This document shows positions 21,484-39,904 of a DNA stretch of 64,000 nucleotides, in pieces. Position 1 is the first letter of the stretch. Each line of letters begins with the position of its first letter. The translations under genes and the position numbers were made by a program. Origin of the DNA: a phage; the sequence record PX418922.1. The stretch is one strand, 5' to 3'. Under the pieces are notes generated by a model. The model searched no databases, was not told the origin of the DNA, and saw nothing but the letters and a program-made list of their open reading frames with translations.

Positions 21484-21508
21484 GTATGAACATTAACAAG
21501 AGAGGTAG

Positions 21509-27920: not shown

Positions 27921-27967
27921 AAAAATTTATGCAGATGGGAATGAGAAGAGTTCTCATGTGGAAATGC

Positions 27968-28046
27968 AAATGATAATGATTCGCATTTAGGTTTATAAAT
28001 GAGATTGATTCTTATTTAATAAAGTAAATGATAATCATTCTCATTT
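27968..28046. promoter_or_regulatory. three Fur-box-like palindromic sites
   Basis: AAATGATAATGATTCGCATTT, AAATGAGATTGATTCTTATTT, AAATGATAATCATTCTCATTT; core GATAATCATTCTC is 1 mismatch from the Fur-box 3' 13-mer. Confidence 0.4.
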
Positions 28047-28304
28047 AGAGAATGACGCGCAGGGGCGGTGTTTGTCTCGCGCTCCCGTGTCCCCTCGCCA
28101 TGTACTAAGAATAACAGATCCAGCCAGGAAAGCAAGCGATTATTTTATCTTTACATTTCTTTACAAATATATAGCGCCCAGCCTACCGGCGATCAACCTT
28201 CCAACCAGTGCCCCTGGTATGTTAGCCCCGCCTTTACGCCGTGGGGTGGCGCTTCCTCTTCTGTATGTAAAACAGTATAAGCCCTATCCCTGGGCTTGTC
28301 AAGA

Positions 28305-28571
28305 TTATTTTTTGTTTTCTTGCCAGGTCAGGACACCTAGCCAAAAATGAATATCACCTTTTCCCCAATGTGGTATATTGCTTTCTTTCCCACCTTCACG
28401 CGCCCAGGTAAAACCGCCCGTGTAACTTTGTAATTGATAACTATCCTCGACCTTATAATCTGATAGGTTGAGAACGGTTTCAACCTTTAAGCCCGTTGCG
28501 CTTGCTACCTGGTGCACCGTGCCGCCTTGCCAGCCCAATGAGTGCATAAGATGTAATGTAGTATTTGTCAT
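28305..28571 (-). CDS. hypothetical protein (88 aa), GC-rich
   Basis: ORF track; AAGGG upstream; lies in an otherwise non-coding stretch, so uncertain. Confidence 0.3.
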   Translation of the reverse strand: MTNTTLHLMHSLGWQGGTVHQVASATGLKVETVLNLSDYKVEDSYQLQSYTGGFTWAREGGKESNIPHWGKGDIHFWLGVLTWQENKK

Positions 28572-28680
28572 GGTGTCGCCCTTTCTTTGTTGTGCGCCCT
28601 GGTTGGCGCGGTAGAAAGATGATAGCCCTTTCCTTTATATATAGCAAGCAAAAAGAAAATAAAAAAGATTGAAAAAGTGG

Positions 28681-28738
28681 TTGACGTTCGCCAGGTGGCG
28701 GCATAATATTTACCACGTAGCGCGGCAATGGTGCCGCT
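28681..28738 (+). promoter_or_regulatory. island promoter + 5' leader hairpin (P1)
   Basis: TTGACG-N17-TAATAT-TTACCAC-GTAG then hairpin GCGGCA-ATGG-TGCCGC. Confidence 0.55.
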
Positions 28739-28758
28739 CACTATTTGGAGTTAAGATC

Positions 28759-28956
28759 ATGGCAACATTGCACATTGTGGCGAAAGCTGGACAAATCAAC
28801 GTAATAGTAAACGGTTTTACTGAGTTCAGTCATCCCCAGGATGATCATGAAACGGTTTTATCTTTCATTGATTCCCTGTTAGAAATGGGAGTCATTACAG
28901 AAGACCAGCACGCTACAAAATGCAAGCGCGTTAATCAAATTGCAGGGATAGAATAA
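28759..28956 (+). CDS. island small protein (65 aa)
   Basis: ATG after GGAG; ORF-track frame trimmed so the start is downstream of the leader hairpin. Confidence 0.5.
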   Translation: MATLHIVAKAGQINVIVNGFTEFSHPQDDHETVLSFIDSLLEMGVITEDQHATKCKRVNQIAGIE

Positions 28957-28962
28957 AAAGTA

Positions 28963-29017
28963 TTGACAACAAACAACAACCTGATAAGATGTATCACATA
29001 GGGGCGACAAGCGCCCC
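28963..29017 (+). promoter_or_regulatory. island promoter + 5' leader hairpin (P2)
   Basis: TTGACA-N16-TAAGAT-GTATCAC-ATAG then hairpin GGGGCG-ACAA-GCGCCCC. Confidence 0.55.
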
Positions 29018-29041
29018 GCCTAACAGAAGAGAGAAATCATC

Positions 29042-29314
29042 ATGGCATCATATAGCGCAACAATGATCGTAACTGGCACCACTGGTAAACCTATGAGCGG
29101 TGGCGGATCTTTCGCTAATATTAATATTGACGGGCGCTTATCCCTGGACGCAGCGATCACCGTGGCGCGGGAAACATTTAAGAAAGAATGTAAATTCAAT
29201 AAACAAGATTATCTCGGTTTCGCTATTGAAAAAACCGCGCGCTTTGTTGATTATAAAAGCCCGAAAATGGTTGATACTACACTGAAAGCGCAAGATGTAG
29301 CCTTTTTGCTTTAA
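29042..29314 (+). CDS. island small protein (90 aa), Gly-rich N-terminus
   Basis: ORF track; AGAGAGA RBS. Confidence 0.55.
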   Translation: MASYSATMIVTGTTGKPMSGGGSFANINIDGRLSLDAAITVARETFKKECKFNKQDYLGFAIEKTARFVDYKSPKMVDTTLKAQDVAFLL

Positions 29315-29317
29315 GGC

Positions 29318-29371
29318 TTGACATTAACGAATAATTTGTTAATATGTTACATAAAGCGGGAATAGTTCCCG
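29318..29371 (+). promoter_or_regulatory. island promoter + 5' leader hairpin (P3)
   Basis: TTGACA-N16-TAATAT-GTTACAT then hairpin GCGGGAA-TAG-TTCCCGC. Confidence 0.55.
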
Positions 29372-29390
29372 CTATTTGTAAGGTGGTAGA

Positions 29391-29648
29391 ATGTTTTACA
29401 TCAAATTAAAAGGTCACGTGATCGCGTTCAAAGATAACGCTTTTTACAGATTAGCAAAATATGCGTTAATACATCCCCACTATGTTTATATAAGGGGGCG
29501 TGATGAAATAAATATTTTTGATCAAACAACATGCGAAAACATCGAGATCCGCAAGGTTGGCGTACGTGATTATCGTACATCTTTCTACCCTTGCAAGGAT
29601 TCAGCAAGTCTTTTTAAAGTATGCCAATTGTTGAAAAAAGGTGGTTAA
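29391..29648 (+). CDS. island small protein (85 aa)
   Basis: ORF track. Confidence 0.55.
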   Translation: MFYIKLKGHVIAFKDNAFYRLAKYALIHPHYVYIRGRDEINIFDQTTCENIEIRKVGVRDYRTSFYPCKDSASLFKVCQLLKKGG

Positions 29649-29649
29649 T

Positions 29650-30207
29650 ATGGGCCGCGAATATGTGATCCAGTCTTGGGTAAAACATGAAGCAGATGAT
29701 CCGCGCATCATTCCCGATCATCTTATCGATGAATCCACGGGATATAGCGGTGAGCAAATAGGTAACAGATTAGCACGTAGTAACGGCAACGTAAAAGCGC
29801 GTTATGTGCGCCCTGGCTGGCTGGCAAATGGTAACGCTGATTTATCCAGTGCGGAAGATGCGAGCGACGGCGCGAAAGATAATCCTTTGTACAAAATTGA
29901 TCCGGCTTTTCGTGTCCTGGATGAATACCCCAGCAAGATAGCGGCGCTCGATCAGGCCCTGGAAAGTAAGCGCATCACCTGGACCGCTTACAACATGGCA
30001 AAAAACGTACTTGATGGTAAATTGATTCAAGCTGAAAGAAAATTAGCCAAAATTGCAGCCATAACCCAGGAGGAAGACGAGGAGACAACGGAAGAGGAAG
30101 AGTACGAAGAGATCCCGCCGTTGTTGTGTGTTGATGCTTTCCCTGATTATCAGCCGACAGAGGAAGAAAAAAGGATCGCACTAGAAAACTTTGAAAATAG
30201 TCTTTGA
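29650..30207 (+). CDS. island protein with acidic C-terminal tail (185 aa)
   Basis: ATG after AAAGGTGG; C-terminus EEDEETTEEEEYEE; no own promoter. Confidence 0.5.
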   Translation: MGREYVIQSWVKHEADDPRIIPDHLIDESTGYSGEQIGNRLARSNGNVKARYVRPGWLANGNADLSSAEDASDGAKDNPLYKIDPAFRVLDEYPSKIAALDQALESKRITWTAYNMAKNVLDGKLIQAERKLAKIAAITQEEDEETTEEEEYEEIPPLLCVDAFPDYQPTEEEKRIALENFENSL

Positions 30208-30260
30208 CATATCGCCGCCACTGGCATAATATTTACCACGTAGGGCGGCAATGGTGCCGC
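30204..30260 (+). promoter_or_regulatory. island promoter + 5' leader hairpin (P4)
   Basis: TTGACA-N17-ATAATA-TTTACCAC-GTAG then GCGGCA-ATGG-TGCCGC. Confidence 0.55.
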
Positions 30261-30289
30261 TCATAGTGAAATTATGCAAGAGGTTTGCA

Positions 30290-30385
30290 ATGATTAATAA
30301 AGAAAATAGCTTGACGGTTGGAACGATTAACGCTATCATTCTTGCCGTTCCATTTTGGATTGTATTAGCGGCTATTATTTTCTAA
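30290..30385 (+). CDS. hydrophobic micro-protein (31 aa)
   Basis: MINKENSLTVGTINAIILAVPFWIVLAAIIF; only coding capacity downstream of P4. Confidence 0.35.
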   Translation: MINKENSLTVGTINAIILAVPFWIVLAAIIF

Positions 30386-30394
30386 AAAATATTC

Positions 30395-30455
30395 TTGACA
30401 ACGTTTTTTAATCTGATAAGATGTATCACATAGGGCGGCGGAATACTTCCCCGCC
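30395..30455 (+). promoter_or_regulatory. island promoter + 5' leader hairpin (P5)
   Basis: TTGACA-N16-TAAGAT-GTATCAC-ATAG then GGCGG..GGAA-TAC-TTCC.CCGCC. Confidence 0.55.
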
Positions 30456-30476
30456 AAAACAAAAAAGGGTAACACA

Positions 30477-30839
30477 ATGAGCAAGCAAATCAATACTATC
30501 ATGTTTAATCTGGTATCTTTCCGCGATGATATGAAAAATTTACCACGTGAAACGGTTGATATTCATGTTTCAGCTTATCGCGCCCTTATTGATATGTTAC
30601 CGCTAAAACGTGATCAACATGCCGCTAATATGATGCTTAATGCTATGCTTAAAAAGATGATTCAAACGGATCTCACCCTGGCGTATGAGTATCAAGGGCG
30701 CTTATATGCAACTTACAACAAGGCGGTACCTGGTCTGGGAAGTACCGAAGAGTTGCACGGCTTAAACCTGGATCAAAACACTTGGGATAGTATGCGCCGC
30801 GTTATGGTATGGGCCGAAAGCGGTAAAATTTACGAATAA
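30477..30839 (+). CDS. island small protein (120 aa)
   Basis: ORF track. Confidence 0.55.
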   Translation: MSKQINTIMFNLVSFRDDMKNLPRETVDIHVSAYRALIDMLPLKRDQHAANMMLNAMLKKMIQTDLTLAYEYQGRLYATYNKAVPGLGSTEELHGLNLDQNTWDSMRRVMVWAESGKIYE

Positions 30840-30844
30840 AAACG

Positions 30845-30902
30845 GTTGACATTGTTTAAAATTCTAGTATAGTTTACCACATAGGGCGGGAAGTGGTTTC
30901 CC
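30845..30902 (+). promoter_or_regulatory. island promoter + 5' leader hairpin (P6)
   Basis: TTGACA-N16-TATAGT-TTACCAC-ATAG then GCGGGAA-GTGG-TTTCCCGC. Confidence 0.55.
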
Positions 30903-30927
30903 GCCAACAATGAAAAAGGTTATCATC

Positions 30928-31293
30928 ATGGCTATTAATATTAATGTTTCCGCTTATGCTACCCTGGCTAACACGGCTAAAATTGAATTATCCAGCATTG
31001 AGGCGGTGCATATTAGCGCCCGTCGCTGGTTTCAACGGTCCTACGGTAACACATATTTTTCTTTAATGGTTGACGTTGAGATCGGCGGTAAACTGATCGA
31101 GGTGGTTAACGTTCCGTTTCAATATGGCTATGGTGATCATTTTGATACCGTCGCCCTAGAAGAGTTTAGCAAGGTTATCAACCTGGAAGGTAAAGAGTTT
31201 TCAAATTATGCCTACCTTTCCCGTTTTTGCCGTGACAATGGGATCACTGTATACAGTCATGCGAGCGATGTAAAACGTAAAAAAGATTTATAA
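30928..31293 (+). CDS. island small protein (121 aa)
   Basis: Second in-frame ATG chosen (AAAAAGG upstream); the first ATG abuts the hairpin. Confidence 0.5.
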   Translation: MAININVSAYATLANTAKIELSSIEAVHISARRWFQRSYGNTYFSLMVDVEIGGKLIEVVNVPFQYGYGDHFDTVALEEFSKVINLEGKEFSNYAYLSRFCRDNGITVYSHASDVKRKKDL

Positions 31294-31299
31294 AAAGCA

Positions 31300-31360
31300 T
31301 TGACAGCACGAATAAAAAGAGTAAACTGTATTACATAGAGAGCGGGAACACTTCCCGCCT
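31300..31360 (+). promoter_or_regulatory. island promoter + 5' leader hairpin (P7)
   Basis: TTGACA-N17-TAAACT-GTATTAC-ATAG then GCGGGAA-CAC-TTCCCGC. Confidence 0.55.
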
Positions 31361-31382
31361 CACTGAAAAAGAGAGAAAAATC

Positions 31383-31622
31383 ATGGCTAAATCTAAAATG
31401 TACAACGGTCACAAAAACAAAACTCATTGGAATGTAAGCCTTTGGATTAATAACGATGAATCGTTATACCGGTTGGCCCAAGATTTTATTAACGCTAATG
31501 CTAATCGTAATGATGCGGCGCGGGATATGATGCTTTTTCTGGAACAAACTGGACAAGATAAAACGCCAGACGGTTTCAAATATAGCACTACTGCGATCCG
31601 TGCCGCGATGGTTGGAATGTAA
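31383..31622 (+). CDS. island small protein (79 aa)
   Basis: ORF track. Confidence 0.55.
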   Translation: MAKSKMYNGHKNKTHWNVSLWINNDESLYRLAQDFINANANRNDAARDMMLFLEQTGQDKTPDGFKYSTTAIRAAMVGM

Positions 31623-31631
31623 TAAAAACAG

Positions 31632-31689
31632 TTGACAACGTTTAAAATTAGTGTAAGATGTATCACATAGGGCGGGAAGTGGTTTCCCG
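31632..31689 (+). promoter_or_regulatory. island promoter + 5' leader hairpin (P8)
   Basis: TTGACA-N16-TAAGAT-GTATCAC-ATAG then GCGGGAA-GTGG-TTTCCCGC. Confidence 0.55.
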
Positions 31690-31712
31690 CCAAAACAAAG
31701 AGATTAAAGATT

Positions 31713-31940
31713 ATGGCTATCAATATTGTTCGCGTATCCGGCACCGTTGGCACTTCCCAGGTTATTGCAGTTGTAACAAACAAAAAGATTAATGATGTAT
31801 GTGAGATCTTGAATAAGTGGGCTATTGCTAATTTTGGGGAATATGCAAGCGTCGAGTACATCGAATCCTACCAGGTGCCAACCATCAGCCTAACCGATCT
31901 CAACGTTGATCGCCTGTTATGCCTGGATGAATTGATCTGA
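31713..31940 (+). CDS. island small protein (75 aa)
   Basis: ORF track. Confidence 0.55.
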   Translation: MAINIVRVSGTVGTSQVIAVVTNKKINDVCEILNKWAIANFGEYASVEYIESYQVPTISLTDLNVDRLLCLDELI

Positions 31941-31949
31941 AAAAGATTG

Positions 31950-32006
31950 TTGACACCGGAAAGAAAAAGAGTAAACTGTATTACGTAGGGCGGCAATGGT
32001 GCCGCT
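31950..32006 (+). promoter_or_regulatory. island promoter + 5' leader hairpin (P9)
   Basis: TTGACA-N17-TAAACT-GTATTAC-GTAG then GCGGCA-ATGG-TGCCGC. Confidence 0.55.
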
Positions 32007-32030
32007 CACAACAAAAGAGAGATTATTACG

Positions 32031-32243
32031 ATGGCTAATATCCGCACACTGTTAAAAAATGCAAGTCAAGTTTTATTTTCAGATGACGAGTATTTCAATA
32101 AAGACATTACAGGCGTGAAGAATATCAAAGATGTAAAAAGTGTTATGGGTATATATTGCAATGTTAAACGTGTTGGAACGTTCGGTGATAAAGTATTGTA
32201 CCAATCAGGTGATTACAATTTTACTTTGACGATTATTTCATAA
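32031..32243 (+). CDS. island small protein (70 aa)
   Basis: ORF track. Confidence 0.55.
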   Translation: MANIRTLLKNASQVLFSDDEYFNKDITGVKNIKDVKSVMGIYCNVKRVGTFGDKVLYQSGDYNFTLTIIS

Positions 32244-32248
32244 AACGC

Positions 32249-32310
32249 TTGCAATACTGCAAAAATAAAGTAAACTGTATTACATCAAGGCGGCGGAATG
32301 GTCCACCGCC
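32249..32310 (+). promoter_or_regulatory. island promoter + 5' leader hairpin (P10)
   Basis: TTGCAA-N16-TAAACT-GTATTAC-ATCAA then GGCGGCGGA-ATGG-TCCACCGCC. Confidence 0.5.
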
Positions 32311-32334
32311 TAACAAAGAGAAGAGGAAAATATC

Positions 32335-32502
32335 ATGATCACTTTCGCTACCCGTGAAGCCGCTCGCAACGTTGCACGTAAAGTTAACGCCGCCAACCTG
32401 GGCGCTACTTTTAAAGCGCCTGTAAAAGATGAATCAGGAAAATGGATCTTCCCTGGTCTGCGTCACGCTGATAAGCTAGGCACTTTAAGCCTTAAAAAAT
32501 AA
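32335..32502 (+). CDS. island small protein (55 aa)
   Basis: Read manually (MITFATREAARNVARK...); AGAGAAGAGG upstream; shares MITFA N-terminus with the next gene. Confidence 0.4.
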   Translation: MITFATREAARNVARKVNAANLGATFKAPVKDESGKWIFPGLRHADKLGTLSLKK

Positions 32503-32505
32503 TCG

Positions 32506-32540
32506 TTGACTTTTCGTTATAGCGCCCATTATAAGGCGCT
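32506..32540 (+). promoter_or_regulatory. island promoter with variant hairpin (P11)
   Basis: TTGACT then hairpin AGCGCC-CATTATAA-GGCGCT; -10 element unclear. Confidence 0.35.
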
Positions 32541-32576
32541 ATAGAGAAGAGAAACCACTACTAACAAGGAAACATC

Positions 32577-32798
32577 ATGATCACTTTCGCTATTGTCGCC
32601 GTTGTCGCTGGTCAGGTTTACGTAAACGATACATTCACCACAGAAGACAAGGCCGCAGGAGACATAACCGCCGTTTACAATGAGTGCAAGGCAGTAGAAA
32701 GGATGTTAGCGCCTTGTATGTTAATGAGTGAACGCCAGGACGGGATAACAGTGTTTACTAACATTGAAACAGGGTACCAAATGGTAGTAACAAAATAA
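32577..32798 (+). CDS. island small protein (73 aa), hydrophobic N-terminus
   Basis: ORF track. Confidence 0.5.
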   Translation: MITFAIVAVVAGQVYVNDTFTTEDKAAGDITAVYNECKAVERMLAPCMLMSERQDGITVFTNIETGYQMVVTK

Positions 32799-32801
32799 AG
32801 C

Positions 32802-32858
32802 TTGACACGGATTTAATTTTCAGTAAACTGTTACACGTAGGGCGGGAATAGTTCCCGC
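32802..32858 (+). promoter_or_regulatory. island promoter + 5' leader hairpin (P12)
   Basis: TTGACA-N16-TAAACT-GTTACAC-GTAG then GCGGGAA-TAG-TTCCCGC. Confidence 0.55.
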
Positions 32859-32876
32859 TAAAAAGAGAGAAAGACC

Positions 32877-33230
32877 ATGAAAGCACAAAATGCAATTAAA
32901 GAGTACATCCTTGCCGCTATCGATTTTAATGATTACGGTATTACAACCGAAAAAGAGAAGATCGCGGAATTGATGCGCCGTTTTAATTCCGAGTACTGGT
33001 ACCCTGATAATCAATCACGTTTTAATTATAGTATTGTTAAAGCACTTGCATCATGGTTACAAGGCTTGCCATCAGATATTAATATAGCTTTCGAATATTG
33101 GGAAATTGATCGTTTGTTAACATCCTGGGGATACATTAAAGAGAATAGCAGCGATGATAAAATCCAACGAGAAAGGGAAAATTATTGGCTTTATATTGCA
33201 GGCGTGATCCTTGCTTGCTCTTATGAATGA
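32877..33230 (+). CDS. island small protein (117 aa)
   Basis: ORF track. Confidence 0.55.
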   Translation: MKAQNAIKEYILAAIDFNDYGITTEKEKIAELMRRFNSEYWYPDNQSRFNYSIVKALASWLQGLPSDINIAFEYWEIDRLLTSWGYIKENSSDDKIQRERENYWLYIAGVILACSYE

Positions 33231-33236
33231 TAAACC

Positions 33237-33289
33237 TTGACAATTTTACAAAACAGTTTAAATTAATAATATAGCGGCAATGGTGCCGC
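33237..33289 (+). promoter_or_regulatory. island promoter + 5' leader hairpin (P13)
   Basis: TTGACA-N16-TAAATT then GCGGCA-ATGG-TGCCGC. Confidence 0.5.
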
Positions 33290-33309
33290 TCATATAAAGA
33301 GGAAACAAA

Positions 33310-33456
33310 ATGAATACATCTAATCGCGCAGAAAAAATTCAATCTTCCAAGATCCGCAAGGCCTGGAATGAGGAAGTGATCCGCAAAGGCGACAAGCGCA
33401 ATAAAACAAAGCGCGGGAAGAGTGACAAATATAATTGGATGGATTTAGAGGATTAA
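33310..33456 (+). CDS. highly basic micro-protein (48 aa)
   Basis: Read manually (MNTSNRAEKIQSSKIRKAW...KRNKTKRGKSDKYNW); terminator follows. Confidence 0.4.
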   Translation: MNTSNRAEKIQSSKIRKAWNEEVIRKGDKRNKTKRGKSDKYNWMDLED

Positions 33457-33464
33457 CATAACAA

Positions 33465-33490
33465 GGGCGCACCAAGCGCCCTTTCTTTTT
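33465..33490 (+). terminator. intrinsic terminator
   Basis: GGGCGC-ACCAA-GCGCCC then TTTCTTTTT. Confidence 0.65.
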
Positions 33491-33511
33491 ACATGTAGAG
33501 GATAAACAAAA

Positions 33512-33697
33512 ATGACTTTAAACGAGCTTAAAACAGCCTATAACGCAACATTAAAAATAGCCGTGCGTTACCGTGACGAATACGGTTTTATTGCGCAGGG
33601 CGTGATCCTGGGCTTTTCTGACGATGGTTTGATCTATGTTGATGCACATCACAACAAGGTTAAACCGGAAAACGTTATCAGTATAAAATATCTTTAA
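33512..33697 (+). CDS. island small protein (61 aa)
   Basis: ORF track; GAGGATAA upstream. Confidence 0.45.
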   Translation: MTLNELKTAYNATLKIAVRYRDEYGFIAQGVILGFSDDGLIYVDAHHNKVKPENVISIKYL

Positions 33698-33703
33698 AAG
33701 TGG

Positions 33704-33760
33704 TTGACACCATAACCGGACCTGTTAAACTGTATTACATCAGGCGGGGAATAGTTCCCC
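33704..33760 (+). promoter_or_regulatory. island promoter + 5' leader hairpin (P14)
   Basis: TTGACA-N16-TAAACT-GTATTAC-ATCAG then GGGGAA-TAG-TTCCCC. Confidence 0.55.
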
Positions 33761-33783
33761 AACCATACAAAAAGGTAAATATT

Positions 33784-33990
33784 ATGATCACCGCAAAACA
33801 AGAAAAAATCATTATCGACGTTGCAGCCGTTGCCGCTATTGCTATTATTGGATCTTATTATGATACCCGTTTCCCGTCGGCTATGCATGAGATCGCCGCC
33901 GTTGCATCAGTTGGCGTGCTGTTTTACGTTGGTAAACGCTATTTATCACCAATGATTAACAAGCTGACACCGTGGAAAAATAAAGGTTGA
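33784..33990 (+). CDS. island small membrane protein (68 aa)
   Basis: Start moved downstream of hairpin; hydrophobic AAVAAIAIIG segment. Confidence 0.5.
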   Translation: MITAKQEKIIIDVAAVAAIAIIGSYYDTRFPSAMHEIAAVASVGVLFYVGKRYLSPMINKLTPWKNKG

Positions 33991-34041
33991 TCCTGTTTTA
34001 TATTGTGTTATAGTTATCGTGTAGGGCGGCAATGGTGCCGC
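33987..34041 (+). promoter_or_regulatory. island promoter + 5' leader hairpin (P15)
   Basis: TTGATC-N16-TATAGT-TATCGT-GTAG then GCGGCA-ATGG-TGCCGC. Confidence 0.5.
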
Positions 34042-34061
34042 GCCCCTTTGAGGATGCAATC

Positions 34062-34346
34062 ATGAGTAAAGCTAACACCGTGCTAATGTTTTCCCTGATT
34101 AATGATCCCGCTTACTTGTCCAACATGACGCAGGAGGGTAACACATTAACGGCAACATTCACCAATAAGCTTGACCGAGTGATCATCATCTCACTGAAAA
34201 CAGTTAGTAAAGGCTTTTACTCGTTAGCTTATCATTGGATCACTGATACCGATGAGACAAGCCAGGACTATAGCGCCCCTTTCCCTGAATCAATGGCACG
34301 GGAGATCATCGCCGCCGTTGTAAATGATGGTTTGTTTACTGCATAA
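34062..34346 (+). CDS. island small protein (94 aa)
   Basis: Start moved to ATG downstream of hairpin. Confidence 0.5.
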   Translation: MSKANTVLMFSLINDPAYLSNMTQEGNTLTATFTNKLDRVIIISLKTVSKGFYSLAYHWITDTDETSQDYSAPFPESMAREIIAAVVNDGLFTA

Positions 34347-34363
34347 ATAATTTAGAAAAAGGC

Positions 34364-34422
34364 TTGCAATCATTTTGAGATAGTGTATATTTAATTCATA
34401 GGGCGGCGGGAATAGTTCCCAA
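34364..34422 (+). promoter_or_regulatory. island promoter + 5' leader hairpin (P16)
   Basis: TTGCAA-N16-TATATT-TAATTC-ATAG then GGGAA-TAG-TTCCC. Confidence 0.5.
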
Positions 34423-34443
34423 AGCAAACGAGAGGATTACACG

Positions 34444-34563
34444 ATGAGCAAGTACACAGTAGAATACACGGTAGAGAATCCGGCAGTATCCGAAGGTAAA
34501 AAGATGACATTTGCCATCAGTATAATCGCTTTCGTTGTCACTATCTTATCAATCATCTTATAA
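34444..34563 (+). CDS. hydrophobic micro-protein (39 aa)
   Basis: Read manually (MSKYTVEYTVENPAVSEGKKMTFAISIIAFVVTILSIIL). Confidence 0.35.
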   Translation: MSKYTVEYTVENPAVSEGKKMTFAISIIAFVVTILSIIL

Positions 34564-34573
34564 GGTACACACC

Positions 34574-34735
34574 ATGAAAATAACAGACATTATCAAAGAG
34601 ATCGCCCTTGCCGCTGGCGTTGAAGTCGAGGAAGTGATCGCGCTCAATCTTACAGAAAACGATCTGCGCAACTATGAAGCGGAAAGCGTGAAAGCAAGCG
34701 GCGCGGTCCTGGTATATGATCCGGCTAACAAGTAA
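34574..34735 (+). CDS. island small protein (53 aa)
   Basis: Start moved to MKITDII... Confidence 0.4.
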   Translation: MKITDIIKEIALAAGVEVEEVIALNLTENDLRNYEAESVKASGAVLVYDPANK

Positions 34736-34744
34736 GGGGGTAAC

Positions 34745-34855
34745 ATGAATCCGAAAGATATGCAAGCATGGAAAGGGTACGACGATCTAAGCGCCTTGCG
34801 CAATAAGTCAAGCCGTAACTTTAGACGGTTGGAAGCAAAGAAAAAGAAAAAATAG
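34745..34855 (+). CDS. basic micro-protein (36 aa)
   Basis: Read manually (MNPKDMQAWKGYDDLSALRNKSSRNFRRLEAKKKKK); GGGGG upstream. Confidence 0.35.
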   Translation: MNPKDMQAWKGYDDLSALRNKSSRNFRRLEAKKKKK

Positions 34856-34856
34856 T

Positions 34857-34912
34857 TTGACAAGTCCGCCTAGTCTGATAATATGTATCTTGTAGGGCGG
34901 CAATGGTGCCGC
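34857..34912 (+). promoter_or_regulatory. island promoter + 5' leader hairpin (P17)
   Basis: TTGACA-N16-TAATAT-GTATCTT-GTAG then GCGGCA-ATGG-TGCCGC. Confidence 0.55.
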
Positions 34913-34933
34913 TCACAAGAAGAGAGAAAAATC

Positions 34934-35218
34934 ATGAAAATTACAAAAAGCCTAACTAATTATGCAGCACGTCGCGGATTATGTTTAACCGTTGAAAACT
35001 TAGGGAAAGAAGACTTTTTGTGTTTTTGGGAGCTTGAGAATGATTGCGAGTGGATGTTTTCTTATTCTATCTGCGAAGATCAAAACGGTTGTTTGTTAAC
35101 CTGGCGCGGTAATATCTATTTACCGGAAGAAATTAAAGAAGAGTTACCAGGTACGATCATGACAGAGAGACAGCTTAAGGAAGTGATCAATTTTGTAGGG
35201 CAAAACATTAAAAAATAA
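34934..35218 (+). CDS. island small protein (94 aa)
   Basis: Start moved downstream of hairpin; AGAGAGA RBS. Confidence 0.5.
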   Translation: MKITKSLTNYAARRGLCLTVENLGKEDFLCFWELENDCEWMFSYSICEDQNGCLLTWRGNIYLPEEIKEELPGTIMTERQLKEVINFVGQNIKK

Positions 35219-35219
35219 T

Positions 35220-35280
35220 TTGACAGCAGGCAAACAACGTAGTAAAGTTTACCACATAGGGCGGCGGAATGGTCCACCGC
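35220..35280 (+). promoter_or_regulatory. island promoter + 5' leader hairpin (P18)
   Basis: TTGACA-N17-TAAAGT-TTACCAC-ATAG then GGCGGCGGA-ATGG-TCCACCGC. Confidence 0.55.
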
Positions 35281-35303
35281 TCACAACAGAAGAGAAACAA
35301 ATC

Positions 35304-35474
35304 ATGATCCCGACTATGTTTTATGTATCGCGCAAAGGTCACAATATTTTTTGGTCTGAAGATTTAAATGAAGCTATGACGTTTGCCCGTGATCGTGTTG
35401 CTATCGGTGGCGTTAACATCACCGTAACCGATGAAAATGGCATTGAATACTATAACGGCGACGATGAAGAATAA
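35304..35474 (+). CDS. island small protein (56 aa)
   Basis: Start moved to MIPTMFYV... Confidence 0.45.
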   Translation: MIPTMFYVSRKGHNIFWSEDLNEAMTFARDRVAIGGVNITVTDENGIEYYNGDDEE

Positions 35475-35479
35475 TTAAT

Positions 35480-35512
35480 GAGGCGGGGGAGTATTCCCCG
35501 CCGTCAATAAAG
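35480..35512 (+). promoter_or_regulatory. orphan leader-type hairpin with no recognisable promoter
   Basis: GGCGGGGGA-GTA-TTCCCCGCC immediately ahead of the RBS of 35522. Confidence 0.4.
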
Positions 35513-35521
35513 AGGTAAATC

Positions 35522-35791
35522 ATGAAAATATCATTAGACGTTGCAATCAAGGCCATCGAATCCGGTTACACCCTGGTAAAAGATGATAAGGCTAAAACCG
35601 TGCACCACGTTAACAAAGAAACAGGCGAAAGCATGATCACATATAAAGCCGCCTACTTTCTCCAATCAGTAGCAGATCCGCGCGTACAACGCCAGGTTAC
35701 AGCGGCTATTGCTAAAAAATTATGTGCTTTACAGGGCACAAGTTTTAACGAGATCGCCCCGTGTTTTGACTGGTCGAGCTTGAAAAAATAG
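35522..35791 (+). CDS. island small protein (89 aa)
   Basis: ORF track. Confidence 0.5.
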   Translation: MKISLDVAIKAIESGYTLVKDDKAKTVHHVNKETGESMITYKAAYFLQSVADPRVQRQVTAAIAKKLCALQGTSFNEIAPCFDWSSLKK

Positions 35792-35792
35792 T

Positions 35793-35845
35793 TTGACAAC
35801 AATTATAAATCGGGTAGAATGTATTTCGTAGGGCGGGGCAATGGT
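35793..35845 (+). promoter_or_regulatory. island promoter with degenerate hairpin (P19)
   Basis: TTGACA-N16-TAGAAT-GTATTTC-GTAG then GGGCGGGGCAATGGTGCAACGCC. Confidence 0.45.
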
Positions 35846-35872
35846 GCAACGCCTACTAATGAGGGTAAAATC

Positions 35873-35977
35873 ATGTTAGAGAAAATTTTCACGGTTGTAG
35901 TAGTGGGCCTGGTGTTATCGGTTGGAGTGGTTGCAACTATGGCTAACATGATCCTATCTTCCCACGGTATTGGATAA
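35873..35977 (+). CDS. hydrophobic micro-protein (34 aa)
   Basis: Read manually (MLEKIFTVVVVGLVLSVGVVATMANMILSSHGIG). Confidence 0.35.
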   Translation: MLEKIFTVVVVGLVLSVGVVATMANMILSSHGIG

Positions 35978-35987
35978 GGTGAATCAA

Positions 35988-36203
35988 ATGATCACGAATA
36001 AGACAGGTAAAACAGAATTTTTACGCGCCTTGCAGATCGGCAAGCCTGAGATCTGGCATTGCACTAAATCCGCGCATAATGAAATGAAAGATTTTACCGC
36101 TACTTTACAACGTGTTAAAATATCTATCACACAGAAAAAAGCCTTGTTAGTAGTAGAAAACGAGATCCCGCAAACTATTATTATTGTCGAGCGTACAGCA
36201 TGA
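35988..36203 (+). CDS. island small protein (71 aa)
   Basis: Start moved from TTG to the in-frame ATG. Confidence 0.45.
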   Translation: MITNKTGKTEFLRALQIGKPEIWHCTKSAHNEMKDFTATLQRVKISITQKKALLVVENEIPQTIIIVERTA

Positions 36204-36586
36204 AAACAGAAATCATTATTGAAATCATCAACGGTTATAAAGAAGCCTTTATTTTTGCTGAATCAGCAAGGGATCATGAAGGTAATTTTATTGATAACTT
36301 AGACGATTATGATTTTTCTCCTAGCGTGGATCAACGGATCGCCCAGGATGTAACAGCCTTTATTAATGCTAATCTTGCCGCTATCTCTGAGGCAATGAGC
36401 GACGGCGCAACAGCCAACCAGATCGGGAATGATTTACATTTTACCCGTAACGGTCACGGCGTAGGCTTTTGGGATCGCCCTGAAATATACACCACTAACA
36501 CGGCGAACCGCCTAACCAATGCAGCTAAGTTTATGCCGAACGTGTCGGCTTACATTGGTGAAGATAATTTGATTTATATTGAATAA
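36200..36586 (+). CDS. island small protein (128 aa)
   Basis: ORF track; ATGA coupling. Confidence 0.5.
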   Translation: MKTEIIIEIINGYKEAFIFAESARDHEGNFIDNLDDYDFSPSVDQRIAQDVTAFINANLAAISEAMSDGATANQIGNDLHFTRNGHGVGFWDRPEIYTTNTANRLTNAAKFMPNVSAYIGEDNLIYIE

Positions 36587-36592
36587 AAAGTA

Positions 36593-36650
36593 TTGACACC
36601 GATCCCCAATATGGTACTATTTACCACGTAGGCGGGAAATGGTTTCCCGC
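36593..36650 (+). promoter_or_regulatory. island promoter + 5' leader hairpin (P20)
   Basis: TTGACA-N16-TACTAT-TTACCAC-GTAG then GCGGGAA-ATGG-TTTCCCGC. Confidence 0.55.
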
Positions 36651-36674
36651 CAGGTAATCAAAAAGGTAAATACT

Positions 36675-37064
36675 ATGCGCAACCTGGTTTCTGTTTCTAA
36701 CGTTGAAAAATTTCAATCTTTACAGGGTATCGTTAACAACGTAGCGCCTTTTTTAGTCAACGGCTTGATTGCAAAGATGAAAAATAAACATCATGCGGCA
36801 TGGTCTGCTTACTGCTTTGATAATGATGAAAAAGCGGCTGAAATGATGTTAAATATGCTGTTAGACAGTGTAGAATCATCTTTACCGGAAAACATCGCAG
36901 AAGAGATCACCTATCGTTATAATATGGCGATCACTTACCAGGAGGTTGCGCAATTTAATATGATGGACGATGACGAACAACAGGATCAGGAAATGTTTTG
37001 GGAGTATGCTGATCGTCAATCGGCTTTTGATGAAAAATTAGCGATGTATTATAACGAATATTAA
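36675..37064 (+). CDS. island small protein (129 aa)
   Basis: Start moved downstream of hairpin. Confidence 0.5.
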   Translation: MRNLVSVSNVEKFQSLQGIVNNVAPFLVNGLIAKMKNKHHAAWSAYCFDNDEKAAEMMLNMLLDSVESSLPENIAEEITYRYNMAITYQEVAQFNMMDDDEQQDQEMFWEYADRQSAFDEKLAMYYNEY

Positions 37065-37080
37065 TACACGGTAAAAGAAA

Positions 37081-37105
37081 GGGGCGCACTAAGCGCCCTT
37101 TTTTG
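37081..37105 (+). terminator. intrinsic terminator
   Basis: GGGCGC-ACTAA-GCGCCC then TTTTTTG. Confidence 0.65.
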
Positions 37106-37448
37106 TATTCTTTTTTCACGATGGAAACAACACGTAAAGAATAGGCGTAAAGGTGGCGTAAAACCATCTAAAACCGACTGTAACCGCTTAAACAAGGTAG
37201 GAATGATTAATCACCTTGCCAGGATGAAAAAGCCGTTATAAAGCTATCTAGAGCGTTTAAAGCACATAGGAAATAATTTGCTTTTTATCTTGCCTTTTAC
37301 CCTGCTTTTGATTATTATTATGGAACGGGCGGCACCTGGAGACAGGGGAAGATAATCACCGGAAGATCCCGCTATATATTGATAGCTAATACCTATTAAA
37401 CAACAAAACATCAAAGGAATAAACTATCAAATCTTTACAATTCTACCT

Positions 37449-37495
37449 ATTGACACCGGATCGCCCTTATACTAAGATGTATCACGTAGGGCAAA
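37449..37495 (+). promoter_or_regulatory. island promoter without clear hairpin (P21)
   Basis: TTGACA-N17-TAAGAT-GTATCAC-GTAGGGC; hairpin degenerate. Confidence 0.45.
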
Positions 37496-37524
37496 TGATT
37501 TTAAACGGTAAACGAGGAATCACC

Positions 37525-37908
37525 ATGAGCAATATCATCAACCTGGCAGCGACTGTAAACGGTAAAGACTTTAACGGCGCTGTAGACCGTGATCCTATGT
37601 GGTACTTGTCAGTGTTTAAAGGCGATCTGGTTGAAGTTAGAACAACCGAAGGGTATAGCGATGATTATAAATGCGAGATTCATTTACATAATTGGTACAC
37701 GGGTAAAACTTATGCGCTGAATCACGCGTTTATCGGAAAAATCGAATATCGTGAGATGATCGACGAAGAAACGGGGCAAGATTTTAGCGAAAACGTTTAT
37801 ATTCGTTCCGAGACATTAGCCGAACGTTTGATCGAGAAAATGAAAGCAAAAAATAAAATTAATTTATCTCATTGGATTGATATAACAAACGATCCAGCTT
37901 ATCAGTAA
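37525..37908 (+). CDS. island small protein (127 aa)
   Basis: Start moved to MSNIINLAAT... Confidence 0.5.
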   Translation: MSNIINLAATVNGKDFNGAVDRDPMWYLSVFKGDLVEVRTTEGYSDDYKCEIHLHNWYTGKTYALNHAFIGKIEYREMIDEETGQDFSENVYIRSETLAERLIEKMKAKNKINLSHWIDITNDPAYQ

Positions 37909-37924
37909 ATAACATTTCATACCA

Positions 37925-37950
37925 GGGCGCACAAAGCGCCCTTTCTTTTT
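37925..37950 (+). terminator. intrinsic terminator closing the island
   Basis: GGGCGC-ACAAA-GCGCCC then TTTCTTTTT. Confidence 0.65.
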
Positions 37951-39529
37951 GCCCGAACAATGTTGATAGATTCCGCCTATGGAAAACCGACACAGAACAA
38001 AACTGAATAAATAGCGGTATCAAGCTAATCAACCATTAAATGAATAACCATACCTCCCAGGGTAACAGGCTGTTAGAGAGCCATTTAAAGCGGTTAAAAT
38101 CGATCAACAACCAACAACAAACCATCAAAAACACCCTTTTACCTCCTTTCTAGTGCAATGATAACCATTATCATCTATCCATGTTTATCTATACAATATA
38201 AGTGCATAATTATAATGTTGATAATAGTTCGCAACAACTAACCAACAAACAACATAAAACAATAAGCAAACTAATCATAATCAAAGGAATAATAGCAAGA
38301 TGATTGATAACAACAAACAATCAAACCATGATGAATACTAAGCAAGATAACGATAACACGACAAAACAACCAACTAACGAACAATAACAAACGAAACCAT
38401 TAAAATAATAACTATTGCCATAATAGTGACTAAATGAAATCATTACAAAACGAATCATTCACAGAGTCATCATTAGCACGCTATGCCGGACACATAGCGA
38501 GCTAATAATAAGCCAACTACACCCCAACAATCATAACCATCGGTGATGGTTATTTCTTGTTACTGCGTAGCTTGCAATAATTGCAAGCGTAATGACGCTT
38601 ACACTTATTGCGCTGGCTTATTATTAGCATTATATGTAATTACCAAGATCATAACATTAGCGCAATAACAATAATCATTGTGGTAATTACGTAAGGAAAC
38701 AATTAGCATGGCAATAATTATGGGGCAATGGGAGGATGATTATCATCATTCCGATACATTGCACACTATGCACATAATAGAATAAAAAGCAATAATTTTG
38801 GGGGCGAAATGTTACCGCCACAGGCGGGAATGTTGAGCACTAAGAAAAGAGATAAACCTTAATCATGGGGGCGTAAATATCCGCAGGATTGCCAACGGCG
38901 ATCCGGTAGGATGTTGAGCATCTTCTCTTAAACGTAAATAAAATCAGAAAATTCTTGATTTATTTTAGTTTTTATGTTAATAAACGTTTAAATAATAATC
39001 ATTCTCATATAAATAATAGTCTGCTTGTCATGAGCGGGATTAGTTGACAATGTTCCGTCATATGATGAAGTTGCCAACCTATTGATAAATAAGTGTTTGT
39101 GTGATTTATAATCAAGTGGCCCACCTTGTCGCTACGTTGGCATAAGCCTTGCATAAGTCATTGAATACGAATGATAATTATTCTCATTCGCATGATATTT
39201 GGGAATTGTCGCTGCGTGGACCTGACGGCCCGAAAATTCGCGTTAAGCACTTCTTACGTATGCGCCATGATTTTTGCCATATGATATTGATTCTATTAGA
39301 TATTCTTGCCATGATTGCCATGAAACAGGGTGTCCCGAAATAATCTTTCCCCGTAGATATTTTGGGTTACTTTTTATACAAGAGTGGGGTGTCAAAAATA
39401 ATCGGTATATATGGGATAATTGATAGGAATCCCCTATGATAATTCGATTGTAATTCCCTGAGATTGATCGTATGATGTTGGTGATTGATGATTGCCATGA
39501 AAGATGGCTAACGATGAGAGGAGATTATC
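37951..39529. other. 1.6-kb non-coding, repeat-rich region with strand-skewed A+C content
   Basis: No ORF of 60 aa or more; CAACAA/ACAAAC low-complexity runs; palindromes; Fur-box-like sites at 38991-39010 and 39169-39189. Confidence 0.5.
38570..38588. repeat. 19-bp palindrome
   Basis: GCTTGCAAT-A-ATTGCAAGC, 9-bp arms. Confidence 0.6.
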
Positions 39530-39904
39530 ATGCAAGAGAGTAAAAATATTCCGTTGAGCAGTGCAGCATTGCTTCGCTTCTATAAAGCATGGATTGCCAA
39601 CTATCCTGCAATGAATCGCACAACGAGTGGCTTATGTGGTTGTCTGGTGGATTATGTAGATGATTTTGTTGGTGAGACAACTAGAGAAGAAGATAGAAGA
39701 TGGCGGGATAGTTTGTTGGACCGTTTGAAATATGAAATGAGGAGACAATTTACATGTGCAGGGCTGGACTATAATCTTCCGTTCAATGCAGATTGCATGG
39801 ATTACCTTTCAGAGTGTATAAACTTGGCGTGTCATACCAACACGTTACGTCTTCAGTGGGTGAAAGACAGAATTGAAGATGCAAATAATGTTTGCATTGA
39901 ATAA
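39530..39904 (+). CDS. hypothetical protein, paralog family A copy 1
   Basis: Shares Y..W......GLC.CL....PF.....WVKD pattern with 44137, 49930, 51236. Confidence 0.5.
   Translation: MQESKNIPLSSAALLRFYKAWIANYPAMNRTTSGLCGCLVDYVDDFVGETTREEDRRWRDSLLDRLKYEMRRQFTCAGLDYNLPFNADCMDYLSECINLACHTNTLRLQWVKDRIEDANNVCIE

Follow-up and report, generated by a model that had tools for sequence, protein, structure and literature searches.

The window, the whole 64,000-nucleotide stretch of DNA analyzed here (PX418922.1), derives from a phAPEC8-like myovirus (Phapecoctavirus), a large virulent phage of E. coli. The direct terminal repeat that forms the physical genome ends is placed by homology at 38917..39245: the record of phage Schickermooser begins and ends with the same 329 bp, and this exact repeat shares 97% identity with the segment, at least 10 independent records begin or end at window position 38917, and a terminal repeat of 328 bp has been reported (Korf et al. 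2019, PMC6563267). Inward of the repeat lies an "island" of about 35 small genes on the + strand (28681..37908), characterized through repeat families D1-D8, a promoter scan and the annotation of relatives. Around 20 of these genes are preceded by a promoter of the form TTGACA-16/17-TAnnnT, followed by a conserved GGGCGG...CCGCC 5' hairpin, and the last gene of the block is T4 gp30.8-like. The island is a right-terminal block of sigma-70-driven early genes, located at the right end of the linear genome.

The small + strand genes at 28.7-37.9 kb are flanked by two large ORF-free regions (27500-28300 and 37910-39530) in which seven palindromes of 21 bp are located; the left region has four of them (27939-28046) and the right region three (starting at 38156, 38990 and 39169). 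The left array consists of site 1 (27939..27959, GAATGAGAAGAGTTCTCATGT; 14.2 bits by the Fur matrix described below, the weakest copy in this phage), site 2 (27968..27988, AAATGATAATGATTCGCATTT; 25.3 bits), site 3 (27997..28017, AAATGAGATTGATTCTTATTT; 20.1 bits) and site 4 (28026..28046, AAATGATAATCATTCTCATTT; 28.0 bits, the top score of the window), and the spacing across the four copies is exactly 29/29/29 bp. This array is located where the 10-14 kb right-terminal early block has its inner boundary, 11-14 kb from the right end and its repeat. On the right, site R1 (38156..38176, CAATGATAACCATTATCATCT; 21.2 bits) is found in a CA-rich spacer devoid of ORFs, 761 bp inward from the edge of the terminal repeat, whereas the other two sites are within the repeat itself: R2 (38990..39010, AAATAATAATCATTCTCATAT; 24.0 bits) at 74-94 bp from the left physical end, and R3 (39169..39189, GAATGATAATTATTCTCATTC; 22.4 bits) at a distance of 253-273 bp from the left end and of 56 bp from the right one. 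Both copies of the Schickermooser repeat contain R2 and R3, and both ends of the virion DNA therefore bear them. A preliminary description of this DNA had listed five copies bracketing the island, at 27968-28046, 38991-39010 and 39169-39189; all five are real and do bracket it, and the two at 27939-27959 and 38156-38176 had been missed.

Match to the Fur recognition sequence

The same description had called the palindromes Fur-box-like and had noted that their core GATAATCATTCTC is one base away from GATAATCATTATC of the E. coli Fur box. The one-base difference is correct, and the likeness turns out to have been understated. Phage sites differ from the 7-1-7 Fur consensus TGATAATnATTATCA at one or two positions, site 4 at only one. 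Matrix scoring, which had been proposed as a check, was carried out with a matrix whose training set was limited to nine E. coli Fur-regulated promoters and which was built from a literature-consensus seed plus the best matches in these nine promoter regions, not from footprints; with it, six phage sites score 20.1-28.0 bits, compared with a leave-one-out median of 19.5 bits for true E. coli Fur sites, and the best other match in the window reaches 15.6 bits. By this measure the phage sites score equal to or above genuine E. coli Fur boxes, and they match the Fur recognition sequence, which is described as a 19-bp consensus, a 7-1-7 inverted repeat or an nATwAT hexamer array, as well as proven sites usually do. 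The window has six sites that reach 20 bits or more, versus 0.064 expected, and the maximum in 1000 first-order Markov simulations was 2. Allowing up to two mismatches, the 13-mer core has 11 matches versus 2.6 expected, a number attained in none of 100 shuffles (0/100), and because of this excess the occurrence of the palindromes in the window is not due to chance.

The relationship also holds in the opposite direction. When a matrix made from the phage sites only was used to scan 40 kb of E. coli DNA, the top five matches were the Fur operators of fepA-fes, fepD-entS and fepB-entC, three Fur-controlled intergenic regions of the ent-fep cluster that make up 1.8% of the 40 kb scanned. Furthermore, the phage sites show a secondary score peak at a 6-base shift (site 2, for example, has a secondary 14-bit match at offset -6), a feature typical of real, footprinted Fur clusters (Chen et al. 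2007, PMC2189734). Bacteria use the very same sequence next to genes of the Fur regulon: the exact 21-mer of site 4, AAATGATAATCATTCTCATTT, occurs in more than 120 bacterial genomes beside such genes. Among 149 flanking ORFs from 120 bacterial loci, the genes downstream of it, with siderophore-synthetase and iron-binding-protein genes among them, include fur (11), IucA/IucC (7), TonB-receptor plug proteins (7), solute-binding proteins (6), ZnuA (4) and ferritin (4). Judged by sequence, host Fur probably binds these sites in vivo.

In motif (the 19-bp GATAATGATAATCATTATC, or the 7-1-7 form), score range and hexamer periodicity, the phage boxes agree with the Fur operators on the chromosomes of bacteria, among them those of E. 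coli (fepA-fes, fepB-entC, fhuA, cirA, fiu and others). The architecture is different, since in chromosomal operators the sites, offset from one another by 6 or 3 bp, overlap each other and the -35/-10 region of the promoter that they regulate (PMC2189734), whereas each phage box is a discrete, extended palindrome, spaced 29 bp from the next, and has no strong promoter or iron genes associated with it. Fur boxes on phage DNA are themselves not new. The stx1 promoter of Shiga-toxin phages contains a Fur box on a temperate phage. Likewise, Fur boxes are found upstream of the sit operon (sitABCD) on lambdoid prophages (PMC6969025). As here, a host Fur recognition sequence is carried on phage DNA in these cases, but the temperate-phage boxes are single operators in front of iron or virulence cargo genes that are expressed from the lysogen, whereas the present phage is virulent and has arrays that are located at the terminal repeat and the early-region boundary without iron-related cargo.

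Placement relative to promoters and genes

The most familiar function of a Fur box would be that of a classical operator, in which host Fur-Fe2+ represses overlapping or adjacent phage promoters and makes a subset of transcripts iron-responsive. Candidate promoters for such control are one in the terminal repeat directed toward the left-end genes (39530 onward), weak ones in the AT-rich region that read through the left array, and a strong leftward one at 28302-28274. Their sequence marks the boxes as true Fur boxes, 83% of E. coli Fur clusters overlap sigma-70 promoters (PMC2189734), the prophage sit operon provides a precedent, and promoter-like sequences do occur near the sites: TTGCAT-18-GATAAT overlaps the site at 39169, with TTGATA-19-TATAAT 50 bp upstream, and TTTACA-18-CAAAAT at 27880-27909 would start transcription about 23 bp before the left array. 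In addition, in several unrelated viral contigs a single box directly follows a TGnTATAAT-type -10 element, as in ordinary operators. However, the promoter-like matches that overlap palindromes are weak, just 9/12, and lie in AT-rich DNA where the scan yields many, whereas none of the approximately 20 strong consensus early promoters found by the scan overlaps or lies near a box. The nearest genes downstream, at a distance of at least 340 bp, have functions unrelated to iron, an operator made of four phased boxes with two more in a terminal repeat would be oddly designed, and the T5 cluster discussed below lies past two terminators and at a distance from the mapped pre-early promoters. Because no strong promoter overlaps the sites, a classical operator role is unsupported and is considered unlikely. 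The earlier suggestion of iron-responsive control of adjacent transcripts accordingly finds no support in the anatomy of the region, and of the proposal that the palindromes are operators for host Fur or for a phage regulator it is the Fur-box sequence that stands, with the host factor favored, and not the operator role. The missing promoter overlap bears on operator function and not on binding.

Unusually strong sites that are not tied to promoters could instead act as a decoy, in which replicating phage genomes, each with at least nine strong boxes, titrate host Fur and derepress the iron-uptake regulon, providing iron for phage enzymes such as ribonucleotide reductase. Titration of Fur by multicopy Fur boxes is well established and constitutes the principle of the Fur titration assay, and a load of about 9 boxes, each with two dimers, on about 100 genome copies is estimated to be on the order of the cellular Fur pool. 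Nevertheless, T5, which has the same arrays, degrades the host DNA within minutes of infection, and derepression of host genes would therefore be pointless there. A decoy also needs neither conserved placement at the repeat and the early-region boundary, nor a 29-bp phase, nor an adjacent GC-rich element, and this explanation appears improbable.

Conservation in relatives and in other phages

In a complete 150-kb relative, seven of the eight matches of at least 16 bits correspond to the two palindrome clusters. Orthologues of site 1 score 17-20 bits in phages tuntematon, B15 and Schickermooser, site 2 is identical in the same three phages, and R1 is identical in B15, Schickermooser and L085. 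Site 3 has other, equally Fur-like sequences in tuntematon and Schickermooser that occupy the same 29-bp register. The array is present at the same position in relatives in which the flanking protein is 58-85% identical, and although sequences and spacings of the sites differ, the Fur consensus is kept. This conservation at the motif level indicates, from sequence comparison, that the motif itself is under selection. Beyond close relatives, the array is found in 449 phage records that comprise Stephanstirmvirinae, T5-like Demerecviridae and other myoviruses of about 145 kb; the consensus is shared by 37 unrelated intergenic contexts whose GC content is 31-49%, and the modal spacing of 29 bp is seen again in six lineages. 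The exact 21-mer of site 4 is present in 68 viral contigs, and that of site 2, AAATGATAATGATTCGCATTT, is also part of the array of the T5-like phage SPC35. Contigs from metagenomes do not have the motif preferentially near their ends.

These distributions bear on the identity of the binding protein. A phage-encoded protein, such as the small terminase or another packaging, end-recognition, replication or virion DNA-binding protein, might have a Fur-box-like site preference by coincidence. Two sites are located in the terminal repeat, the usual place of packaging signals in repeat-ended phages, the right-repeat copy of the T5 cluster is about 500-650 bp from the physical right end, and contig L042 has boxes 325 bp upstream of a small terminase gene. 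Phased palindrome arrays are moreover typical of iteron- or pac-type sites, and a stop in DNA injection would be easier to explain with a virion protein on the array than with a cytoplasmic one. However, phage DNA-binding proteins and their sites normally co-diverge, whereas this consensus is constant across lineages that have no detectable homology around the sites, bacteria have the same 21-mer in front of Fur-regulon genes, and the four-site array is 11-14 kb away from the repeat. A phage protein is thus rated distinctly unlikely. The host factor is favored on these sequence grounds because the same consensus recurs in unrelated phage lineages of 31-49% GC, because no Fur homolog is encoded in the phage, and because no DNA-binding domain is recognizable in the genes neighboring the sites.

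It is scarcely credible that the palindromes act independently of any protein, through cruciform or bent DNA, or are functionless inherited repeats. The T5 literature does treat the equivalent elements as structural repeats and palindromes, such palindromes can form hairpins, and one scored as terminator-like, but single copies turn over while the exact Fur consensus stays, the motif recurs in unrelated phages, and the match is to a specific protein-recognition matrix including its degenerate positions.

The T5 injection-stop region and a possible role for host Fur

The injection-stop (iss) region of phage T5 belongs to the right part of the left terminal repeat, which is untranslated, and contains copies 1-4 of direct repeat C and the palindromes E, G, H and I, after which come palindrome J and major nick 1 (Heusterspreute 1987; Wang 2005; Davison, bioRxiv 10.1101/866236). 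With the E. coli Fur matrix, T5 palindromes G, I and E score 28.0, 22.4 and 19.9 bits, respectively, and they surround the calculated first-step-transfer shear point at 9618. The window array aligns by blastn to T5 9571-9630 at 83%, and SPC35 has six sites in the region corresponding to the T5 injection stop. At the sequence level, the annotated T5 palindromes E, G and I are the same boxes as those of the left array, which corresponds to the module formed by E/G/I (direct repeat C), palindrome J and nick 1. In both phages the palindromes share the 21-bp consensus and are clustered in a long untranslated region (ORF-free 27500-28300 in the window), at the inner boundary of a block of early genes transcribed by the host polymerase, the cluster is followed after 10-30 nt by a GC-rich element with GCGCAGGG, and it is conserved throughout the respective phage family. 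In the literature searched, no link between the T5 palindromes and Fur boxes was found, nor were experiments on metal-dependent Fur binding or on iron- or Fur-dependent expression in these phages.

The palindromes are proposed to be candidate high-affinity-type sites for host Fur-Fe2+ that are placed at structural landmarks of the genome rather than at promoters and that have a boundary or entry role. This combined statement is given a probability of about 0.45, which is weighted toward the identity of the Fur sites; that the function is that of a boundary or an entry checkpoint is in itself only a tentative suggestion, since it is binding and its effect that we infer here. With a period of 29 bp, successive sites would be rotated by about a quarter turn each, and thus by one full turn over the four-site array. 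Upon entry of the DNA into an iron-replete cell, Fur dimers would coat each 21-bp box at once and, given the known tendency of Fur to polymerize, could cover the whole array of about 110 bp. The resulting nucleoprotein block would delimit the early region. It could keep transcription or translocation from crossing the boundary, as a roadblock or insulator does, could serve as a pause point in DNA entry, or both, and it would be relieved when Fur loses its iron. For the 50-year-old puzzle of the T5 injection stop, Fur is a testable host-factor candidate.

Several observations argue against this role of host Fur or set the window phage apart from T5. Boxes of 21 bp at a distance of 29 bp are unlike the overlapping, 6-bp-shifted operators of the chromosome, and it is hard to see how further entry could be stopped by a cytoplasmic protein sitting on DNA that is already inside the cell. 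The T5 cluster lies inside a 10.1-kb terminal repeat, whereas the repeat of the window phage is 329 bp and the array, although located at the inner edge of the early block on the right, is outside this repeat, with two extra boxes within the repeat. Spacing is irregular in T5 and strictly 29 bp here. The paired DnaA boxes next to the T5 palindromes (IRD'-spacer-IRC'; Davison, bioRxiv 10.1101/866236) are absent in the window phage, in which the two non-coding regions contain no TTWTNCACA DnaA box (6 in the whole window versus about 8 expected), and so are the T5-type DRD repeats. T5-like phages are the only ones for which two-step DNA transfer is documented; for phAPEC8-like phages it has never been reported. 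Finally, the motif lacks a contig-end bias in metagenomes, and some single copies are placed like ordinary operators.

The GC-rich element that adjoins the left array (28047..28300) is highly conserved and is near-identical in relatives, in which the neighboring NADAR protein is 58-85% identical. It is non-coding, as shown by homopolymer indels of 1-3 nt that occur in it among relatives, and no RNA-structure signal was found in the element. Within it, at 28057-28064, is GCGCAGGG, the reverse complement of the annotated nick-1 octamer of T5, of which one 150-kb relative has just two copies.

Palindromes with the sequence of Fur boxes

All five Fur-like palindromes described previously at the edges of the island were found, and a scan with the 7-1-7 form of the Fur consensus and the 21-mer palindrome added two further copies, at 27939-27959 and 38156-38176. 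The left copies start at 27939, 27968, 27997 and 28026, an exact 29-bp period, and this 29-bp unit was also recovered by a repeat finder that used no Fur prior (families D9 and D11). The sites are confined to two long ORF-free stretches, 27500-28300 and 37910-39530. They were scored with an E. coli Fur matrix built solely from nine Fur-regulated promoter regions (fepA-fes, fepD-entS, fepB-entC, fhuA, fecI, cirA, tonB, exbB and fiu), seeded with the literature consensus and based on best matches in these regions rather than on footprints. With this matrix, the sites starting at 28026, 27968, 38990, 39169, 38156 and 27997 reach 28.0, 25.3, 24.0, 22.4, 21.2 and 20.1 bits, respectively, and are exactly the six best matches in the window, the next one having 15.6 bits. 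The comparison by position weight matrix suggested in the preliminary description thus bears out the resemblance to Fur sites, the leave-one-out median of true E. coli sites being 19.5 bits. Chance would give 0.064 sites of at least 20 bits in the window, against the six observed, and no more than two arose in any of 1000 first-order Markov simulations.

The converse scan was done with a symmetrised matrix made solely from the seven phage sites, applied to positions 600000-640000 of E. coli K-12. Its top five matches are located without exception in the fepB-entC, fepA-fes and fepD-entS intergenic regions, which together cover 1.8% of the scanned stretch. In addition, the score profile has a secondary peak shifted by 6 bases around each phage site, which is the signature of footprinted Fur clusters (Chen et al., 2007; PMC2189734). 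The exact 21-mer AAATGATAATCATTCTCATTT is present in more than 120 bacterial genomes, from Proteobacteria to Bacilli, Clostridia and cyanobacteria. Pfam classification of the 149 genes reading away from these bacterial copies identified FUR-family genes (11, a sign of autoregulation), IucA/IucC siderophore synthetases and TonB-dependent receptors (7 each), solute-binding proteins (6), ZnuA-type proteins and ferritins (4 each) and rubrerythrins (3). A tblastn search with 24 E. coli iron proteins, too insensitive for this purpose, placed homologs at most 1.5 kb away at 9 of 80 bacterial loci. ArgR, IHF, Zur and CRP/FNR boxes were rejected, as their half-site sequences and spacings do not appear to fit the phage palindromes. 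On the matrix, score-peak and bacterial-context tests together, the identification of the palindromes as Fur boxes is therefore strongly supported, and as firm as sequence analysis permits.

The motif is widespread in viruses. In IMG/VR, 68 contigs contain the exact 21-mer, in 37 unrelated contexts of 31-49% GC; 36 of these 37 are intergenic, and roughly half contain multiple boxes within 400 bp. With the array as query, blastn matched 449 phage records, belonging to Stephanstirmvirinae, T5-like Demerecviridae (with Escherichia, Salmonella, Klebsiella, Citrobacter and Pectobacterium as hosts) and other ~145-kb myoviruses. The commonest spacing between neighbouring boxes is again 29 bp, which is found in six independent lineages. 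The motif has no bias towards the ends of metagenomic contigs (mean relative distance 0.28 vs 0.25 expected, KS p = 0.44), and the downstream genes in unrelated viral contigs, for the most part tiny hypothetical ORFs, are uninformative. In one unrelated contig the boxes lie upstream of a small terminase. Like the two boxes within the terminal repeat, the expected location of packaging signals, this would suit recognition by a phage-encoded protein. Such a protein is nevertheless unlikely, because the consensus is identical across unrelated phages and is used in bacterial Fur regulons, and because the window contains neither a Fur homolog (best tblastn E = 5.7 with an approximate E. coli Fur sequence as query) nor a DNA-binding neighbour of the arrays.

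Genome ends, early block and conservation of the array

An origin from an E. coli chromosome or prophage was rejected, as none of 5,426 complete E. coli genomes matches the 13 kb around the palindromes. The same 13 kb match 276 phage records, the closest being Escherichia phage ECML-183-2, tuntematon and other Phapecoctavirus (Stephanstirmvirinae) at 93-97% identity, that is, phAPEC8-like virulent myoviruses of ~150 kb and 39% GC. No tRNAs were detected within the window.

The island (28.7-37.9 kb) is an array of ~35 small genes on the + strand and constitutes an early-gene block for the host polymerase. A cassette of promoter and 5' hairpin is present in ~20 copies on the + strand between 28681 and 37478, with one further copy at 7149-7122 on the - strand, and precedes nearly every early gene of the island. 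It consists of TTGACA, a spacer of 16-17 nt, TAnnnT, GTATCAC or TTACCAC and a GGGCGG...CCGCC hairpin, in this order, and lies directly ahead of the ribosome-binding site of a small gene. Classical operators would be expected to overlap promoters, and this is not borne out: the consensus early promoters are all distant from the boxes, the promoter matches that do overlap boxes are weak (9-of-12), and the neighbouring genes have no relation to iron. Of the earlier proposal that the palindromes may be operators for host Fur or for a phage regulator, the Fur-box identity is strongly supported by the matrices, the 6-base peak and the bacterial contexts, but the operator role is supported only in part, the consensus promoters lying elsewhere.

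Position 38917 of the window is the start or end of many independently deposited records, and other records reach 39236-39244 from the opposite side. The terminal repeat of the relative Schickermooser has been reported as 328 bp (PMC6563267); in its record, both ends bear an exact 329-bp repeat, which is 97% identical to 38917-39245 of the window. The sites at 38990 and 39169 therefore lie inside the direct terminal repeat, and two boxes are thus present at every virion DNA end. The island forms the right-terminal block of the linear genome, with the left array at its inner boundary. The distance from the four-site array to the right end is 11 kb in the window phage and 14 kb in Schickermooser, whose array likewise has a 29/29/29 period. 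In a complete 150-kb relative, seven of the eight matches of at least 16 bits make up the left and right site clusters.

Relatives in which the adjacent NADAR-domain protein is 58-85% identical have four or five boxes in the same place. In these diverged phages the sequences and spacings of the boxes vary and the Fur consensus is kept in all, while in close relatives single boxes are swapped for other Fur-like sequences with the 29-bp register unchanged. Since boxes are replaced in register and retain the consensus, the comparison argues for selection on the motif itself and not mere inheritance. The ~250 bp located 3' of the array (28047-28300) are almost invariant even where the flanking protein is only 58% identical; they contain homopolymer indels of 1-3 nt that break any reading frame, which therefore identifies them as a constrained non-coding element. 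With respect to structured RNA, Rfam gave nothing at the gathering threshold in the window and, when E up to 1 was allowed around the left array, matches at noise level; the folding of the GC-rich element does not exceed that of shuffled sequences (z = 0.05 and 0.31 for the two strands). Because these signals are absent, the element may be a DNA-level signal, e.g., a nick site or a protein site.

Two promoter-like features are located beside the array. At 28302-28274 on the - strand there is an 11-of-12 sigma-70 promoter match (TTGACA-17-TATACT), present in all aligned relatives, whose spacer is the terminator hairpin of an 88-aa - strand gene (28305-28571) and from which transcription would run leftward across the GC-rich element and into the Fur-like array. 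Immediately left of the array, two AT-rich direct repeats of 72 nt (27718-27789 and 27856-27927; 82% identical) each contain TTTACA-18-CAAAAT; they are unrelated to the T5 DRD repeats.

The T5 injection-stop palindromes and a possible role of the boxes

Where T5-like records begin at the physical left end, the array matches at ~9.0-9.7 kb, inside the left terminal repeat. The boxes of T5 itself belong to the injection-stop region, which is untranslated and has a calculated shear point at 9618 (Davison, bioRxiv 10.1101/866236). In T5 (AY587007), the annotated palindrome G (9576-9596) scores 28.0 bits, palindrome I 22.4 bits and palindrome E/direct repeat C copy 1 19.9 bits; the T5-like Salmonella phage SPC35 has six such boxes. 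These repeats and palindromes have been catalogued since 1987 and were still described only as such in 2026, and the stop signal proposed by Davison is DnaA boxes, with Fur never mentioned (bioRxiv 10.1101/866236). Literature searches combining Fur with T5, with lytic phage or with phage genomes yielded nothing relevant, and the link between Fur boxes and T5 injection-stop palindromes appears to be unreported in the searchable literature. Both are known kinds of element, and it is their connection that appears to be new.

The two systems share a further feature. Beyond the T5 array come palindrome J and the major 7.9% nick, at the annotated octamer CCCTGCGC. In the phAPEC8-like phage the reverse complement of this octamer, GCGCAGGG (at 28057), opens the conserved 28047-28300 element 10 nt past the array; GCGCAGGG occurs only twice in a 150-kb relative. 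However, the terminal repeat is 329 bp here and the array lies outside it, whereas the T5-like match is inside the left terminal repeat. Moreover, DnaA boxes adjoin the palindromes in T5, while none were found beside the window arrays. The T5 cluster is placed beyond two terminators, which also speaks against operators.

Fur is predicted from the motif to bind the arrays, and their placement and the T5 parallel suggest a boundary or pause function. In the proposed model, host Fur-Fe2+ would coat the arrays soon after DNA entry, forming an iron-sensitive nucleoprotein block at the boundaries of the terminal early region that would act as a roadblock or insulator and/or as a pause in DNA delivery. 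A decoy that titrates Fur would conflict with the fact that T5 destroys host DNA early and would leave the conserved placement unexplained. A more far-reaching reading holds that Fur is the cellular factor recognising the T5 injection stop signal (possibly with DnaA in T5-like phages), that Fur-box arrays are a general device coupling entry or transition to iron, and that delivery is gated in phAPEC8-like phages; we give it roughly one chance in eight. If true, large virulent enterobacterial phages, namely T5-like siphoviruses and phAPEC8-like and related myoviruses, would couple DNA entry or the transition from the early to the next phase to host iron status, and the phAPEC8-like phage would have an unsuspected staged or gated delivery of its ~11-kb terminal early block.

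To our knowledge, Fur boxes on phage DNA were known only as single operators before iron or virulence cargo in temperate phages. Here, a virulent phage carries phased, top-scoring Fur-box arrays at the ends of its genome and the edge of its early block, as hundreds of other phages likewise do. With the T5 injection-stop palindromes read as Fur boxes, an old open question becomes directly testable. Gut iron status varies strongly, and the phage groups concerned are widely used for therapy and biocontrol, in which host iron status may gate infection.

DnaA boxes and neighbouring features

In T5-like phages, as at locus 1803-2302 of SPC35 (L086, a viral record), Fur-like boxes surround the DnaA-box pair of the injection-stop region: 4-5 of them form an array to one side, and a lone 28-bit box lies 357 bp off to the other. 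In two unrelated viral contigs of marine origin (L020 and L056), a TTATCCACA box pair lies directly beside the exact Fur 21-mer. On account of this adjacency in T5-like phages and the two marine contigs, a module of DnaA and Fur boxes may be recurrent.

A DNA-binding regulator encoded beside the arrays was sought and rejected, the neighbours being NADAR, T4 gp30.8-like, CapR/T5orf172 endonuclease, AAA ATPase and unknown proteins. The NADAR-domain gene (26957-27499; E = 2e-35) lies just upstream of the left non-coding region and is preceded by the CapR/T5orf172-type endonuclease gene (25423-26409). The NADAR family is linked to reversal of ADP-ribosylation, and anti-defence or DNA-processing functions are possible for both products. 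On the right, the ~950-bp ORF-free stretch from the last early gene to the terminal repeat (37950-38900), which contains the box at 38156, is A/C-rich on the + strand, with strong strand asymmetry (AT skew ~0.25) and AACAACAAACCATCAAA repeats; its conservation (92.5%) is below that of its surroundings. Finally, several records, e.g., that of the relative B15, are opened arbitrarily at ~21300-21500, which is not a physical genome end; here the GC skew changes sign and divergent consensus promoters are found at 21452-21425 (-) and 21741 (+).
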